A stretch of 64,000 nt of DNA, taken from positions 9,424,001 through 9,488,000 of the forward strand of contig CM102283.1 in assembly GCA_046563655.1 (NCBI GenBank), given 5' to 3'. The DNA comes from Yuukianura sp. NJ FZ-2021 (taxonomy: Eukaryota). The position numbers and the translations under genes are program-made. Shown one piece after another: positions 3,541-47,308 of this stretch (its first letter is position 1; the number at the start of each line of letters is the position of its first letter). The notes beneath the pieces are model-generated. The model worked only from the letters and a program-made list of their open reading frames with translations. It was not told where the DNA came from and made no database searches.

Positions 3541-6500
3541 AGTACTTCCGTTCCCATTTCCTTAGTCTTTCATCATCATTAAAACGTCAACACCAGAAGA
3601 GGAGTGACAGACTCCAGAGATTTATTACGGAGAGATTTGAGCTAATTACTAATTGAAGGGATCCAAGGAAGTCCACTCCACTTCATAAATCATAAACAAC
3701 AACAACATAACAACAGTAGCCTAACTATAACCTAACATTTTAGCACTAGAAGCAACGGAGTCCAGCAGAGGTCAAAAGGTCATCGCTCAACTCTTTTATG
3801 TCCACTTTATCACACTTTTTTTTTAAATTTCGAGAATTCATTTTGAAATAAGGCTTAAAAGTAAGTGATGGGATTTGCATGGAGCTGAAATGTCAGTTTT
3901 TCTTTTAAATTGCTCCACTTTTTCTTGCGTTAACTCCAAATGCGACCTTTGAGTTGAGAATTCCCCCAAGAGTTTGACCAATCACTTTCTCCGAATGTGA
4001 AACTAAAAGCTCATGACTTTTTTCATTTGAACTTTCACTTTAAGCAGTTTCAGCCATGCTTGCTCACTTTCTAAAAAAAGAGTTGAAAAATGTAGGAATG
4101 TGACCAGAGGAAGGCAGGGTCCTTAGGGAGGGGGCCCTTAGAAGCGTGTGGTGCCTTGCCATAAAAATTCAAACCCTAATTCCAACCATCCTTCTATTTC
4201 CAGTCAATTCTTCTCCCAAGAGCAACACTTTCTATCAAGTCCACTCAAAGATGGAGGAAGCGGGACTTTTGAAAAAGCGGGCATTTTGAAGAAAGCGGGC
4301 ATTAGAGTGAGGAACTGGAGAAGAATGGACTTGAGGATTCCAGTGTGATAATGGAGATACGCTTGTCCAAAGTGGATCTTCTTCCTTTATGCTCCACTAA
4401 GGACTTGCCGCTTCAAGAGATTTGGCTTTTAAATTCTAGCGCCACTACAAGTGGCAACCTACCACCTAAAAGTGGCAACCTACCGCTTTAAAGTGGCAAC
4501 ATGTCACCAGGACAGTGATTGAAAACAGCAGTTAGGTTGGGCTTGACTAACTTCTAAATAAGAAAAGAATTAATTTCTAAAAGTGATTTTTAAAGGCGCT
4601 TTTTTAAGTTAAAGGTTTGAATTAACGTGTAAAACAAAATCCGGGATGTTTCGGGTTCAAAAAATCCGGAAAAACTTGAGTACCGTGAAACACTTTCTTT
4701 ACAGATGAATAAATTTAGTTTGAGTGTTGTAAAGAGAGCACGAAGTTTGAAAATGGAACAGTCAGTATGTCTGCTTTTCAGTTTTTTTTTCAGTTTTTTA
4801 AAAAGTAGTTTTTTTTTTAGATTACTGTGCTCACTGTCTTGATTTTGTGTGTTCTAAAACATAAAGTTGAGAAGGGAGGACCAGATTTTGGCAACTGAAA
4901 GCGTTGATTCTTAGAAATTTTGAAAATTCTGGCCAATTAAGTTTGACAGTCATGAAAAAAGAGTCAATGCTCTAGAAAAAAGTTATTTTTGTTTTGAAAT
5001 TTCACGACTAACGTTTTTATTTTGAAAAGAACATCAAATAATTTCGTTTCGACTAAAATTTATTTCGTACCTTTTGAATTTGCAGCAGAAGTTGTAGTGT
5101 TGGATAGATTTCGAAAACAGTTGAGTTGTCGTTCCAAAATGATCAAATCATTTTCATCCAAGTCGTCAATTTTAGGTACTTCTGAAACTTCTCCCATTTT
5201 TAGCACGTTTTCAAACTTTTGTGTTTTGTGATCCAGAAGTCATCAGAAATTCATTTTCAGAGTTTCAAATTTTTGACTCAAATATCTGAAATCAACACAA
5301 ACTTTTTTAATAAAATGATCCCAATGAGCTTCTGTTGTTTTGAGTTTTTCGAACCAAAAGCGACGTGACAAAATGTCTAATAAGAGGATTTGTGGATTTA
5401 AAATTTTGCAAAACTCAAACTTTTTATAATTTTTTTGAAAGAGAATTGAGGTTAAATTTAACTGAAAATCTGCATGCAAGTTATTTTTAAAGAAACAAAA
5501 AATTTTCCAAACGCTTCCAGACTTATGCAAAATCGGAAATCCATTTTAGCACAATTTCAAAACATTTTGTTTTTAGCAAAATTTGTGCAAAAATTAAACT
5601 GGAAAGGGGCGTGGTTCCACAGAAGTGCAAATTTTCACATGAATCAAAAATCATGTCATTTCAAGTGTCATTTTTTTTTAAAGTGTAGCCGTCTGTACTT
5701 GACACTTGAAAGTGATCAATCAACTTAAATAATTCATTGATTGCTTCGGAACTGCAAAAAGGTTTCGAGGTGAAACGGAAATTGGCTTTTTCAAATTTAA
5801 AACTTAAAACAAATGAAAACGCTTTTGTCCTGACAAGATTTTAAACAGTTCCTGCCCTTGTTCTGTCATTTTAAGCATGAATTTGAATATTTTTGCCACT
5901 TTTGAATTTTTATTCCAATTCCGTGTCAAATAGGGAAGAGAAAACCGAAGAATCCAAAATGTCTTTTTTCAAAAAATGAGAAGAGGACCAACTCCCGCGG
6001 GAGATCAATTTTTGGAAGCCAAAAAAAGTTTGAAGTGGAAACCTTTTATACTTTACATACCGATGGTGACAAGTTTTTTTTGTGAAATAAGAAAAAAAAA
6101 TGGGATCTGGAACGTGCACTGTCAAATTTTCGTTCCAATTTTTCCTGCCATTTCTTATTATGCTTGAACATTCCACTTTACCTTTACGTTGTACAATTTA
6201 CAACGTCTATCTCCATTATGTAAATAAGCTTTATAGTACTTTACGATTAGACATTTCATGTTCCCGCCAAAATCCAATTTCAAATTTCTACCTACCGATT
6301 GCATTTTTTCAAAAAAAGGAAATTTGAAAATTCAAATCCAATTCTATTTTGATCACAATTCGCATCCCAGCCAATTCCATCTTGGAAGTACTAACCACAA
6401 CTTTTTGAAATTTTAGCGGTCAGCATTACACATTTTTTTAAGACTAACAAAATTGTTGCGGTAATTTTTTTCAAAAACTTTTTTTTAGTTGTAGACTTAA

Positions 6501-41730: not shown

Positions 41731-43663
41731 CTAAACAGGACGATACAGAAATTCTCCACTTTCGTCATAATAAGAATCTCCGACTTTGTAGACCGAACCT
41801 TCCCGTTCAGCATTTGAAGGAAGTCGAACGCGTTGTCTTCTCTGTGCAAATGGTTTCTAAAAAAAAAGTTTTAGGATTAGTTTTCAAAATTACACAAAAA
41901 AATGTGCGAATATTTTTTTGTCGTTACCTGTAACCCAGTGTCTGATTTGTAAATGTAGGCTTCACCTTTTTCAACATTTAGTTCTACTTTGTCTTTAGAA
42001 ATGTTTGCATATTTCTGAATACGAGCTCTTCTTCCAACTAAATCTTTTGCATCTGGAACATATTCTTCTGTTCCAGGCAGAATTGGAGCTGGAGTGGCTT
42101 GACCTTGACTTTGAACGCTCAGAAGATAAGCAAATTTCTGCTGCTCAGTTTCAGGCAAATGACCAGTTTTGCCAGATTTCTGGGCATTTTGAATTTCAGT
42201 TTCAAATTCTGCCAAAGTCATTCTTCTTCGATTCAGACTTTCAAGAAACTTGGATTCTTGTTCGGTAGGCGGAGCTTTATGAGATTCCGAAACGTCGAGT
42301 CTCTGTGTTTGAGTGGATTTCAACTGCATGGACGCTGACATTTTGGATTTTGTTGTGCTGTTCCGTTTGTTAAAGCGTTTGGCGCCATTTTGTTTTTGAA
42401 TTATTTCTTGATCGTCGTCATCTTCCTCTTCAACTGGCGGTGCATTTGGAGTTACCAGACGAGCAAATGGCCCCAGTTTCTTTGGTTTCTCAATAGCAAG
42501 TAACCCCAATTCAGGAGTCGAAATAGCACCGAATTGGACTGGAATTGACCTCCGAATTTCCATCTTCTGTTCCAATTCTGGACTTAACTCAATTTCACCT
42601 GCCTTGATCTTTTCTAGTTGCTCGGCAACTCTTGCATCGTGGTTCCTAATTGCCTCGGCGTTCAAACATCGAAATGGAGATTTGAGCAGTTTTTGGACAC
42701 TTTCGAGTGAAATTGGAAACGAAGCGGCGAGGTTCTCTTCACTCCATTCTTCTGGATCAGTTTCATGGAGATATCGCAGTTGCTCTTTTTCGGCATAAGT
42801 CAGCAGGCAAATGTCCGGTTTCATGTAGTCCTTGAAATGTTTGTTTATCGTTCTCCATTTTCTAGCTTGATACTTCTCGTCAAGCTTCTCTCTAGAATCA
42901 AATTTCATCAAATTAGGACATTTTTACTATTCTGGTAAAAAAGTATGGATGGATGGCCACTTACTGTTCATAATACTCATACATCTGAGGAAGTTTAGTC
43001 AAATCTAAACGTGGTTTGGAGAAACTGTCAAAAACGTCTTGGACATCGGGCTCTACGTTCTCAAATACGTTCCGACTGTTGGCAATTCTCTCTTCCCGGG
43101 TTGGATATCTCCGACCGCTGCGACTGACGTTGGCGTTCGTCACCGCTGAAACGTAAAATAAACGTAAACATTCTTTAGTGTTTAGTAATTAAAACTATGC
43201 AGAGCATCATTTGCTAAAAACCCGGATTTCTGCATGAGTAAATATGCGTACATGGGTGCACGTGCAAATTTCCTTCCCACAACAGCTTATCAATTCGGAT
43301 GACTAATCGTCGTACTCATGTATACATGAGAAAGTGGAGACAGGATGTCAAACCATGTTGATTTTTACAACGTGATACAGGAACAAGTGGTATAAGGAGG
43401 ATATAGCGTGGGTGGTGACGACGGTGGTGAATTGAGGAGGAAGGATGAGTGTTACTTATAAGTTCATTCGATAATTAGTAACGGTACATTACGAGAAACG
43501 CGGAAGATAAGGAGACAAAGTGAAAATTGTTAAGTTTTGGCAATAAATTGATACGGTATTGGTTACCCTTTGGATTGACGACACGGCGACCATAGTTCCG
43601 GACGGAAGTTGAGCCAGAGACGAAAGTATTGAGCAGTAGTTTCCCAGCGTTTTGCGAAATCAT
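41731..43663 (-). CDS. NGRN: Neugrin-like mitochondrial protein, 4 exons
   Basis: LTYAEKEQLRYLHETDPEEWSEENLAASFPIS...KLLKS core and C-terminal YYDESGEFLYR; presequence-like N-terminus. Confidence 0.82.
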
Positions 43664-44580
43664 GTCAACTGAAAAACCAATTCCTCCGAAAATTGCTCCT
43701 AAACCAGGTGAGAAATTTCACACCAAAACATTCGCGAGAACCGGATGGAGTGCGATGTTGCCAACTGTTGCAAAAATAATTTTATTATTGTTTTCAATTT
43801 TTATATTTTTTATTAGGGTTTGTTAAAGTTGTCCGTGCTCTGTACAATTATGTGGCACAACACGACGATGAATTATCGTTTAGCGAAGGAGATATTTTGT
43901 ACATTCAGCAAGAAAATGGAGGTGATCCGGACTGGTGGAAGGCACGGTGCGGGCCAAACTCGGGCTTAATTCCAGCTAATTATGGTTAGTTCCACCACTT
44001 TTTCGAATTTTAACTGCATAATTTTTAGAAATTCTTGTTTTTCAGTGGAGTTAAAAGCAGACATAATGGATAATCCAATTCATGATGCTGCACGGCGTGG
44101 AAATTTAGAATTTTTGCAAGAATGCTTGGGAAATGGAGTAACAGTATCCGGGCTTGATGCTTCTGGAAGTACTCCTCTACATTGGGCTGCAAGAGCAGGT
44201 CACCTCGATTGTACTTTGGCCCTTATTGAAGCTGGAATTAAACAATTCCGAAATCCAAAGAAGTTTATTAACACACAGGTAATAAAATGCAAATATTATA
44301 GCTATATTTTGAGACAATATTATCAGAATTTGTTGTTGTTTAGAATCGTATGGGTGAAACTCCATTGCATTTGGCTGCTGCCAAAGATCACCTAGAAATA
44401 ATCGAGGCATTATTAGAAAATCAGGCAGATCCAACAATTGTGAACAAAGAAAATCAAACGGCTTTGGATTTGTGTCATGAACCTTCTGCAAAGTCCGCTC
44501 TTCAACATAGTTTGATGCATCCGAATGAAAATGATCCAAATCAGGATGATGAGTACTTAGAAGAGTCGGAAGAAGATTGA
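43662..44580 (+). CDS. OSTF1: Osteoclast-stimulating factor 1 (Pro-rich N-terminus, SH3, ankyrin repeats, acidic tail), 4 exons
   Basis: MSTEKPIPPKIAPKPG|VCKVVRALYNY...DELSFSEGD...GLIPANY|V...NPIHDAARRGN...TPLHWAARAGH...DEYLEESEED. Confidence 0.95.
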
Positions 44581-44849
44581 GGAAATCTAATATTATTTAA
44601 AACTTATAAAATTTTGTGTTTATACTTAAAACTTTTCATGAAAAATTAAAGCTTGCTAGACAAGGTGGCAACATCGACCCATGAAAAACCCCGCGAAAGT
44701 CATAATTCAATTTCGGTATCGCTCTATCGCTAAAAATTCAAAACAAAACTTCATTCATTTTCCGCTTCTAAACAATTGAATTAACTTACTCGTTTCTAAT
44801 TTGTCAAGCGAAGTTTAATCGTTTCTCAGAACCTTATGCGATAAGCAAA

Positions 44850-47308
44850 ATGCCGGAGATCAAGATTACGCCTTTAGGTAAGTTTTAACAGTAATTAGGC
44901 CAAGCACTTTTCATATAAAGTACTTTACCATGTTTTATGTTCAGGTGCCGGACAAGATGTTGGGAGAAGCTGTATTCTATTGCATATCGGTGGGAAAAAC
45001 ATCATGCTGGACTGTGGAATGCATATGGGTTTCAAGGACGAGCGAAAGTTTCCAGACTTCACAGCGATTACTCAAGGAACTGGAAAGACATTGACAGAAT
45101 ACTTGGACTGTGTCATCATCTCTCATTTTCATTTGGATCATTGTGGTGCTCTTCCTTATATGACAGAACAGGTCAAGTATGAAGGTCCAATTTACATGAC
45201 ACATCCCACTAAAGCCATTTGTCCAATGCTGTTGGTATGCGACACGGTTTTTTTCGATTTCAAACTGTACCTGATTCATATTTTTCGTTCTAGGAAGACA
45301 TGGTCAGAATCAACGAGATACAAAAGAAAGAGAGGATTGAGCGTTTGAATACACCGAAAGATCAAGCGAAGCTGAAGGCCGAAGAAGCTGAAAACTCTGA
45401 TTTCTTCACCAGTGCCCAAATCGCTGCTTGTATGAAACGTGTAACAGCAGTAAACCTTCATCAAACGACAATGGTAGACAAGGAACTGGAAATCAAGGCC
45501 TACTACGCTGGACATGTACTTGGAGCAGCAATGTTTCGAGTTCGAGTGGGGCAGCAATCTGTTGTTTACACCGTAAAACCATAATTTACTCAATCAATTA
45601 CTTTCCAACTCTGAACTCAACTTATTATTTTAGGGTGACTACAACATGACTCCAGATAGGCACTTGGGAGCAGCTTGGATTGACCGTTGTCGTCCAGATC
45701 TCTTGATCACCGAGTCCACTTATGCCACGACCATTCGAGACTCCAAGAGATGCCGAGAACGAGACTTTCTCAAAAAGATTCACGAATGTGTGGACCGTGG
45801 TGGCAAAGTATTGATTCCAGTATTTGCGTTGGGCCGTGCTCAGGAATTGTGTATTCTTCTGGAAACGTACTGGGAAAGAATGAATTTGAAAGTTCCCATT
45901 TACTTTGCCAGTGGGATGACTGAAAAGGCTAATCACTACTACAAAATGTTCATTACTTGGACTAATCAGAAGATCAAGAGAACTTTTGTCAAGAGGAACA
46001 TGTTTGACTTTCATCATATCAAGCCATTTGACAAGTCTTACCTCAGCAATCCAGGAGCAATGTAATTGATAAATCCAAATTACCAATTACTTTGTAAATT
46101 GATAAATTCTTACCAATTACTTTTTTAATTGATTGATAAGCCAATCTTAATCTTACTTTCCAGGGTTGTCTTTGCTACTCCTGGCATGCTCCACGCTGGT
46201 CTGTCACTACACATTTTTAAAAAATGGGCGCCAAATGAGAACAACATGGTAAGCGACCATTTGAGAATGAGTTGTCATGTGACGAACTAACTTCGTTTGT
46301 GGTTTTCAGATCATCATGCCCGGATTCTGCGTCAGTGGTACCGTTGGAAGCAAAGTTGTTGCTGGAAACAAGAGGGTGGAGATTGATGGTCAGATGATTG
46401 ATGTCAAGATGTCTGTCCAGTACATGTCTTTTTCAGCACACGCAGACGCCAAAGGCATCATGCAGCTTATCAGCTACTGCCAACCCAAAAACGTTCTACT
46501 CGTCCATGGAGAAGCAACAAAGATGGAATTTTTAAAACAAAAAATTAACCAGGTTCGACGTTTAGCTAATTTTAGCAAAGATAAAGATGCTGCAAGTATT
46601 TCAAAATTCTTGAAATGGATGTCTGAAACGATGTGTTGATTTTAGGAATTTGACATCCAGTGTTACATGCCAGCCAATGGAGAGACTTGTACAATCACAA
46701 CTGATCCGGACATTCCAGTAGACGTATCTTTGAACCTCATGAAAAAGGAAGAAGCTGAGTACGACATGCTGCCTCCAGATCCAAAACGACAGAGGCTCAT
46801 CCATGGTGTTTTGATTATGAAAGAAGACGTGAGACATTTTACAAAGTTAACACAATTTGTATTTGACTTAACATTGACTTTGGGTTTCAGAAACTGAAAA
46901 TTGTTGACGTGGATACTGCAGCCAAGGAACTCAACCTCCCTCGTCACAGTCTCAAGTTTACTGAAGCCATAATTTTCAGAGAATTCGGAGCTCTGTCTCG
47001 CACAACTGACAAGATTGCAGAACACTTGAAACTGAAACTGAAGGATAACGATGCCACAGTGGAAGTTTTGTCTGAAAATGAAATCAGGATTGACCAAGGT
47101 CGAGTTCTCATTTCCATTACCCCTGTTCCAAAAAGTGATACTGAAAAGGAAGTTTCAACGACATGGAACTTGCAGGTATTATGCAACTAGTTGCTACAAA
47201 ATTAATTAACAAAACATTCAAGATTCAACTAATCATGAGTTTACATTTTGCTAGGATGATGACCTTGGATCTTACATTTTTGCACTACTCACGAGTCTCA
47301 GTAGATAA
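44850..47308 (+). CDS. IntS11: Integrator complex subunit 11 (CPSF3L), metallo-beta-lactamase/beta-CASP nuclease
   Basis: [81 protein letters not shown]. Confidence 0.97.

Follow-up and report, generated by a model that had tools for sequence, protein, structure and literature searches.

A head-to-head OSTF1/neugrin gene pair with both start codons on one CATG in Yuukianura sp. NJ FZ-2021

Analysis of 64,000 nt of the Yuukianura sp. NJ FZ-2021 assembly (contig CM102283.1; this whole stretch is called the window below) identified two divergent protein-coding genes, OSTF1 on the forward strand and neugrin on the reverse strand, that use one palindromic CATG as both start codons, the overlap of the two coding sequences being the 2 nt inside it. 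The pair is also present in two other loci, on opposite strands and with the 5' ends facing each other. Because the start codons overlap by 2 nt, any leader crosses the coding sequence of the partner. Judging from the sequences, we consider it likely that OSTF1 and neugrin form a conserved and obligatory head-to-head overlap, in which the promoter of each gene lies in the first intron of the other and the transcripts cross.

The junction between the genes was compared in three sequences, namely the window and two metagenome-contig loci, L001 and L003. These loci came from a scan with the neugrin alignment, which yielded three loci in total; the remaining one, L002, ends 193 nt before its match, lacks the junction and was excluded.

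Gene models and start codons

An earlier note on this DNA had proposed that one CATG provides both start codons, and the two gene models, which close in frame from it, agree with that proposal. No in-frame ATG lies between either start codon and the preceding stop codon in any of the three sequences; in the window this stop is found 23 codons upstream in the OSTF1 frame and 19 codons upstream in the neugrin frame. Neugrin exon 1 was confirmed to have no second methionine and to join exon 2 (at 43145) in frame, both as the earlier note had stated, the junction being in phase 1.

The neugrin start was singled out among 36 first-exon candidates, each running from an ATG to a phase-1 GT, enumerated over 43146-45000: the one opened by the ATG at 43663 is alone in also showing homology to exon 1 of L001. 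The two exons are 48% identical and have in common M-I/M-S-Q ... STS..YG.R.V.P. In the full-length relatives P0125 (452 amino acids) and P0126 (422 amino acids) 93-113 residues precede the region homologous to exon 3, and exons 1 and 2 of the window encode 93. Exon 1 contains five lysine and arginine residues and no aspartate or glutamate; a basic, acidic-free segment resembling a mitochondrial presequence is as expected for neugrin, which we take to be a mitochondrial protein.

The OSTF1 start agrees with the orthologs. In the window, L001, L003, Orchesella dallaii and three bees, the first methionine stands only 2-13 residues ahead of a PPK..KPG motif. The N-terminus M-x(2-6)-PPKIAPKPG, with the motif PPK-x-APKPG, is common to the window, L001, L003 and Orchesella, and the bee proteins have a related PPK..WKPG, 8-13 residues from the first methionine. 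A short N-terminus is expected, since the SH3 match in the PDB entry 3ehq begins at chain residue 14.

The OSTF1 model has four exons and 684 nt (228 codons with the stop), encodes 227 amino acids and shows the architecture of the family, that is, a short proline-rich N-terminus, one SH3 domain and then ankyrin repeats within ~215-240 residues. Its exon 3 is 64% identical to the Orchesella dallaii protein named 'Osteoclast-stimulating factor 1'; for three OSTF1 proteins of bees the identity is 45-53%. The neugrin model also has four exons, with 1368 nt (456 codons with the stop) and 455 amino acids, and its PF06413 match scores 30.3 bits, above the gathering cut-off of 24. A word-indexed search for neugrin relatives gave three exon-level matches only, of no use for N-termini, and a profile search was used instead, which returned 464 relatives at E <= 0.001. 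Identity of exon 3 to the database relatives P0001, P0002 and P0003 is 52%, 48% and 37%, respectively, and the nearest named relative is the 'Neurite outgrowth-associated protein' of Orchesella dallaii. The neugrin C-terminus, ...YKVGDSYYDESGEFLYRPV, lies outside the Pfam Neugrin match and is strongly conserved in the springtail-like proteins P0124, P0125 and P0126 and in P0136.

Since both ATGs are the best-supported start codons, each leader is expected to be antisense to the first coding exon of the partner, and the structural reading given in the earlier note, in which each 5' untranslated region runs antisense to the other gene, holds to this extent. A scanning ribosome needs a leader, which places each transcription start site (TSS) inside the other gene; use of both ATGs would by geometry make the 5' ends of the transcripts overlap.

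Conservation of the head-to-head layout

In L003 the CATG at 446-449 serves both genes, with neugrin (MIRSALSW...) on one strand and OSTF1 (METESVKPAPPKIAPKP) on the other, whereas in L001 the OSTF1 CAT (220-222) and the neugrin ATGATG (233) stand 10 nt apart. Conservation of the CATG in related genomes, named in the earlier note as a check, is thus partial: the sharing is identical in the window and L003 but is replaced by a 10-nt spacer in L001, and the layout recurs in all three. The shared CATG is probably ancestral, with an insertion of 10-12 nt gained by L001; parsimony favors this order because the closer pair, the window and L001, differ, while the window and the more distant L003 agree. 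Once the starts are interlocked, each base of the CATG is essential to at least one of the two start codons, and no special function need be assumed for its persistence.

All six first introns of the three sequences have GT..AG ends, and the neugrin introns keep their phases (1, then 2) throughout. In each of the sequences the first neugrin intron is long (421, 329 and 226 nt in the window, L001 and L003, respectively), and neugrin exon 1 of L003 gives a weak alignment only. The first introns themselves are unalignable, and we therefore regard the window, L001 and L003 as representing well-diverged species. In Orchesella dallaii, OSTF1 (CAL8143801.1) and neugrin (CAL8143802.1) are on one contig of 5,166,756 nt and are presumably adjacent, because their accessions are consecutive. 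In the L003 OSTF1 gene, an extra intron of ~80 nt (L003:~69-149) splits the SH3 exon after ...YGYTAQQ, where exon 2 of the window is continuous.

Candidate promoter elements and predicted transcription starts

The earlier note had adduced as promoter support an 11-mer, TGGCAACATCG, with one copy in OSTF1 intron 1 facing neugrin and another upstream of IntS11, the gene downstream of OSTF1. Both copies were recovered and are the only exact ones in the window. The repetition by itself is weak evidence: for copies ~900 nt apart, ~0.3 pairs are expected by chance in 1.1 kb, and with at most one mismatch three matches were found against 0.62 expected, a number reached in three of 100 shuffles. The first eight nucleotides of the 11-mer, TGGCAACA (43763-43756 on the reverse strand and 44666-44673 on the forward strand), match exactly TGGYAACR, the consensus of DMv2 or Ohler motif 8, listed as a Drosophila core-promoter element in Table 1 of PMC1779564. 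A neugrin-sense TGGYAACR is conserved in OSTF1 intron 1 at all three loci (Table 1), and in this form the use of the 11-mer as promoter support is upheld. The joint chance for the three loci is 7e-7, a product taken before allowing for the 17 motifs, two strands and two genes scanned. A motif-blind search for common 10-mers with at most two mismatches found 17 against 1.5 expected (0 of 300 shuffles), their core being the block around TTGGCAACA. Since both the arrangement and the motif recur in orthologous loci, they are more than chance.

Table 1. Coordinates of the OSTF1/neugrin locus and of its candidate regulatory elements. Positions are those of the window unless another locus is named; distances with a minus sign are counted from the neugrin ATG.
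Feature	Position	Strand	Description
Palindromic CATG	43661-43664	both	OSTF1 start ATG 43662-43664 (+); neugrin start ATG 43663-43661 (-)
OSTF1 exon 1	43662-43707	+	MSTEKPIPPKIAPKP plus 1 nt; donor GT at 43708 (G/GTGAGA)
OSTF1 intron 1	43708-43816	+	109 nt, GT..AG
OSTF1 exon 2	43817-43984	+	SH3 domain; Pfam SH3_1, E=1.5e-15; matches PDB OSTF1 chains 1zlm, 1x2k, 3ehq
OSTF1 exon 3	44046-44278	+	ankyrin repeats (Pfam)
OSTF1 exon 4	44344-44580	+	ankyrin repeat, acidic tail, stop TGA 44578-44580
Neugrin exon 1	43567-43663	-	MISQNAGKLLLNTFVSGSTSVRNYGRRVVNPK plus 1 nt; opens MISQNAGK...NPK; donor GT 43566-43565 (G/GTAACC)
Neugrin intron 1	43146-43566	-	421 nt, GT..AG; longest intron of either gene in the window
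Neugrin exon 2	42965-43145	-	enters in phase 1, exits in phase 2; 53% identical to L001 exon 2
Neugrin exon 3	41928-42891	-	Neugrin domain, Pfam PF06413, E=4.1e-07
Neugrin exon 4	41731-41856	-	stop TAG 41733-41731; C-terminal ...YKVGDSYYDESGEFLYRPV
DMv2-type 11-mer, neugrin side	43753-43763	-	TGGCAACATCG; in OSTF1 intron 1, neugrin sense, starts 100 nt before neugrin ATG
DMv2-type 11-mer, IntS11 side	44666-44676	+	TGGCAACATCG; 86 nt past OSTF1 stop, 184 nt before IntS11 ATG at 44850
TGGYAACR in OSTF1 intron 1, window	-100	neugrin sense	TGGCAACA; shuffle chance 0.0076
TGGYAACR in OSTF1 intron 1, L001	-129 (L001:104)	neugrin sense	TGGTAACG, plus TGGCAGCA at -154; chance 0.0094
TGGYAACR in OSTF1 intron 1, L003	-173 (L003:274)	neugrin sense	TGGCAACA; chance 0.0098
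TCAGTT	43667-43672	-	initiator consensus TCAGTY; 9 nt before neugrin ATG; ends the acceptor-like TTTTTCAG
Nearest upstream ATG, neugrin strand	43729-43731	-	68 nt before the start codon; opens a short upstream open reading frame
ATG-free stretch, candidate OSTF1 leader	43448-43661	+	nearest upstream ATG 43445-43447, 217 nt back
TCATTCG, candidate OSTF1 TSS	43464-43470	+	exact Drosophila INR1/DMp3 consensus; 19 nt after the last upstream ATG
TGGCAATA, weak DMv2 candidate	43538-43545	+	7/8 match, OSTF1 sense, 124 nt upstream of OSTF1 ATG
GATGACTAA, exact 9-mer	43298-43306	+	neugrin intron 1, OSTF1 sense; also L001:501-509 (-) and L003:648-656 (-)

According to PMC1779564, DMv2 is one of five Drosophila motifs described as directional, variably placed and TSS-proximal, and the significant 8-mers reported there for Drosophila promoters peak from -100 to +40. 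The form MKSYGGCARCGSYSS of Ohler motif 8 is quoted in PMC3160885, and the protein that binds the motif was not known as of 2018 (PMC5768762). The sites described here resemble Drosophila DMv2 in the exact consensus and in the location on the sense strand of the gene that they precede, as seen for two genes of the window and for neugrin at all three loci. They differ in being found in a non-dipteran hexapod and within the intron of the opposite gene; in addition, three of the seven sites of the window have a longer form, TGGCAACAT-NN-CAC. The longer form occurs among the sites at 4494, 15494, 43763 (reverse strand) and 44666, and those at 4494 and 15494 both carry TGGCAACAT-NN-CACCA. At 4440-4510 (forward strand) three tandem copies of AGTGGCAAC(C) with 21-nt spacing (the GTGGCAAC cluster) were observed, the last of them running into TGGCAACATGTCACCA; this homotypic DMv2-like cluster is possibly another promoter. 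L001 (~53-64) and L003 (~243-254) have in common GAT(G/T)GCATCA, which precedes the DMv2-like TTTGGCA(G/A)CA by ~25 nt, and the L003 version, ATTGCATCA, resembles a C/EBP-ATF composite site.

The neugrin promoter would thus lie inside OSTF1 intron 1, marked by the sense DMv2/Ohler 8 element 100 nt before the ATG, and the neugrin leader, predicted at ~66 nt or less, would be antisense to OSTF1 exon 1. If free of upstream ATGs, this leader begins in OSTF1 exon 1 or in the adjoining part of intron 1, downstream of 43729-43731; a TSS near the DMv2 element instead gives a leader with an upstream open reading frame, since the upstream ATG lies downstream of the motif.

On the other side, the OSTF1 promoter is predicted inside the unusually long neugrin intron 1, and the OSTF1 leader, of ~100-215 nt, would cover neugrin exon 1 in antisense from end to end. 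The run free of ATG on the OSTF1 strand measures 217, 168 and 175 nt in the window, L001 and L003, respectively (shuffle P = 0.005, 0.018 and 0.065; Fisher combination ~5e-4), and extends in antisense over the complete neugrin exon 1 and over 119, 73 and 56 nt of neugrin intron 1. This fits an OSTF1 leader that passes antisense through neugrin exon 1 into the long intron, and it lends indirect support to the predicted overlap of the transcripts. A candidate TSS in the window, TCATTCG, has no counterpart found in L001 or L003. The 9-mer GATGACTAA is shared by all three loci, 134-152 nt from the acceptor of neugrin exon 2, with unconserved flanks; only 0.02 shared 8-mers are expected, and the 9-mer is probably a factor-binding site and resembles those of the bZIP type. 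Next to the neugrin donor, L001 and L003 both have CAACGCAG; after the exon 1 donor, L001:315-331 and L003:565-581 share CTGCGTTG (GTAAGGCTGCGTTGATT and GTAAGTCTGCGTTGTTG), and the window has TTATTGCCAAAAC at this place.

With promoters so placed, polymerases starting from the two of them would run face-to-face across ~100-250 bp, and complementarity between the mature mRNAs would reach at most 141 nt (43567-43707), both AUGs included.

Several observations weigh against this reading. The run free of ATG on the neugrin strand (68, 76 and 134 nt in the window, L001 and L003, respectively) is not significant (P = 0.32, 0.17 and 0.11, shuffles), and at all three loci the stretch from the DMv2 element to the neugrin ATG contains an upstream ATG. 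TGGYAACR shows no overall excess in the window, with seven sites against 6.4 expected. On the OSTF1 side no known Drosophila core-promoter motif common to the three loci was found, nor an exact DMv2 in any of them. The donor of neugrin exon 1, GTAACC, is not the strongest donor form. The shared CATG itself is not required, because the starts of L001 stand 10 nt apart, and the adjacency in Orchesella is deduced from consecutive accession numbers.

Three rival explanations were weighed. The earlier note had remarked on a TCAGTT just before the neugrin ATG, either initiator-like or a splice acceptor; its position and its match to the initiator consensus were verified, but L001 does not conserve it, and it could also be a by-product of OSTF1 codons 3-4. 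Were transcription to start at its A (43670), the leader would have only 7 nt and the overlap of the neugrin mRNA with OSTF1 coding sequence would come to just 9 nt, making interference and pairing negligible on the neugrin side, with the OSTF1 leader still antisense to neugrin exon 1. TCAGTY stands 91 nt after the DMv2 start both in the window (TCAGTT) and in L003 (TCAGTC), at a background in the window of 103 per 128,000 positions (~0.0008 per position), which makes the identity of the two offsets suggestive; 85 and 89 nt after the IntS11 copy of the 11-mer stand the initiator-like TCATTC and TCATTT. However, the spacing was noticed after the fact, no initiator-like site follows the DMv2 motif of L001, and the same offset in L003 gives a leader of 80 nt, so that the length is not conserved. 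A leader of 7 nt is also poor for scanning initiation, and the OSTF1 codons to which TCAGTT is antisense are not themselves conserved. We regard a start at TCAGTT as improbable.

If the same string is taken as an acceptor, a non-coding neugrin exon from further upstream would be joined at TTTTTCAG (43669/43668), with the DMv2 element as a mark of this exon or of its promoter, and no more than 5 nt of OSTF1 exon 1 would be covered in antisense by the mature leader. The string GGTTTTTCAG/TTGACATG is a good acceptor-like sequence directly before the neugrin ATG, and a leader spliced there would no longer contain the upstream ATG at 43729-43731; but the string is not conserved in L001 and L003, is antisense to the non-conserved OSTF1 codons, and has no donor or upstream exon identified for it. 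Rfam, searched at gathering thresholds over the whole window, gave no spliced-leader or any other RNA family match, although spliced-leader genes could lie elsewhere, and we know of no spliced-leader trans-splicing in hexapods. This is the least probable of the rival explanations and quite unlikely. Trans-splicing or a nematode origin of the DNA, considered on account of TTTTCAG-like strings, was set aside in view of the taxon of the relatives and the non-conservation of the strings. Only slightly more credible is a start of one gene outside the CATG: of neugrin in another first exon or at a downstream methionine, or of OSTF1 in an upstream exon joined through tttcccag at 43640-43647. The neugrin N-terminus is poorly conserved, as the weak alignment of L003 exon 1 illustrates, in the window each of the two ATGs is preceded by an acceptor-like string, and the next in-frame neugrin methionine is found at the end of exon 2. 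Yet its use would drop the presequence-like N-terminus, and neither L001 nor L003 conserves the acceptor-like strings. In all three sequences the ATG of neugrin exon 1 lies 0-10 nt from that of OSTF1, followed by a conserved phase-1 donor, and an earlier in-frame ATG is absent from both genes; the similarity of exon 1 between the window and L001, the N-terminal length in full-length relatives and the uniform start of OSTF1 orthologs just ahead of PPK..KPG argue for the CATG as well.

The window is compact (GC ~0.31-0.46; introns mostly 61-109 nt, which is also the range of the other introns of both genes), and packing is tight downstream of the pair: the OSTF1 stop is followed by ATTAAA, resembling a poly(A) signal, at 44645-44650 and by the promoter-type motif of IntS11 at 44666, so that one gene ends right at the promoter of its neighbor. 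The IntS11 protein is ~90% identical to many insect proteins; its best named matches all come from insects and do not discriminate the taxon. The closest named relatives of OSTF1 and neugrin, both fast-evolving, belong to Orchesella and point to a hexapod, probably a springtail or something close to one.

Relation to known overlapping genes

Head-to-head coding overlap is already known in animals, and the obligatory, conserved interlock of start codons is an unusual variant of it. In human, 473-582 coding pairs overlap head-to-head, that is, at the 5' ends, by the counts given in PMC9917990, where the DLG4 leader is described as extending over the entire VLCAD leader and over 62 bp of VLCAD coding sequence. 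For such pairs the same source discusses four consequences, namely promoter competition, polymerase collision, occlusion and RNA duplexes, and it notes that the human pairs are on average not negatively correlated (PMC9917990). By analogy, the same four consequences are possible for OSTF1 and neugrin, which are likewise coding genes on opposite strands with a 5' overlap and a leader antisense to the coding sequence of the partner. Unlike in DLG4/VLCAD, this overlap is unavoidable by choice of TSS, as the start codons interlock; both leaders rather than one would be antisense to a coding exon, and the layout is kept in divergent relatives.

Bidirectional promoters, reportedly characterized by Trinklein et al. 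in 2004, are said to serve divergent genes that lie within 1 kb of each other and have back-to-back TSSs. The present pair resembles them in comprising divergent neighbors of housekeeping type with very close 5' ends and probably with shared open chromatin. There, however, transcription leaves a shared nucleosome-free region in both directions and the transcripts do not cross, whereas here each TSS would lie beyond the other, so that the pair falls outside the classical definition with back-to-back, non-overlapping transcripts. Divergent genes starting on one CATG also exist in bacteria and phages (E. coli nnr/queG and 'excludon'-type pairs), and there too the expression signals lie inside the partner gene. 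Those genes have ribosome-binding sites and involve no scanning, introns or RNA polymerase II promoters, in contrast to the intronic promoters and spliced mRNAs proposed here; OSTF1 and neugrin, as spliced eukaryotic genes, are not an excludon in the bacterial sense, and the likeness is one of layout only. Our literature searches, which did not extend to supplements, found no paper on the neugrin/OSTF1 pair or on such a start-codon interlock in animals, and a search on TSSs and promoters of Collembola gave nothing relevant by title or abstract.

The interlock could also be a selected regulatory device rather than tolerated compaction, with reciprocal output of neugrin and OSTF1 kept since before the sampled springtail lineages split. 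In this reading the mRNAs would be perfectly complementary over both AUGs and the promoters would fire through each other, with reciprocal output set by polymerase collision, duplex masking of both initiation sites or endogenous small interfering RNAs. The idea takes neugrin to act in mitochondrial ribosome biogenesis and OSTF1 to be a cytoskeletal/signalling adaptor; we think it unlikely, if somewhat less so than the rival explanations weighed above.

In animals, 5' coding overlap is usually optional, depending on the TSS used, and its regulatory meaning is therefore debated; for OSTF1 and neugrin the overlap would be compulsory for both genes. The pair may thus serve as a natural test case for whether face-to-face RNA polymerase II promoters and mRNAs complementary over both AUGs interfere with each other or are tolerated at low expression. 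The findings also extend DMv2/Ohler 8 from Drosophila to a basal hexapod lineage and provide an example of a putative promoter element conserved within the intron of the opposite gene.

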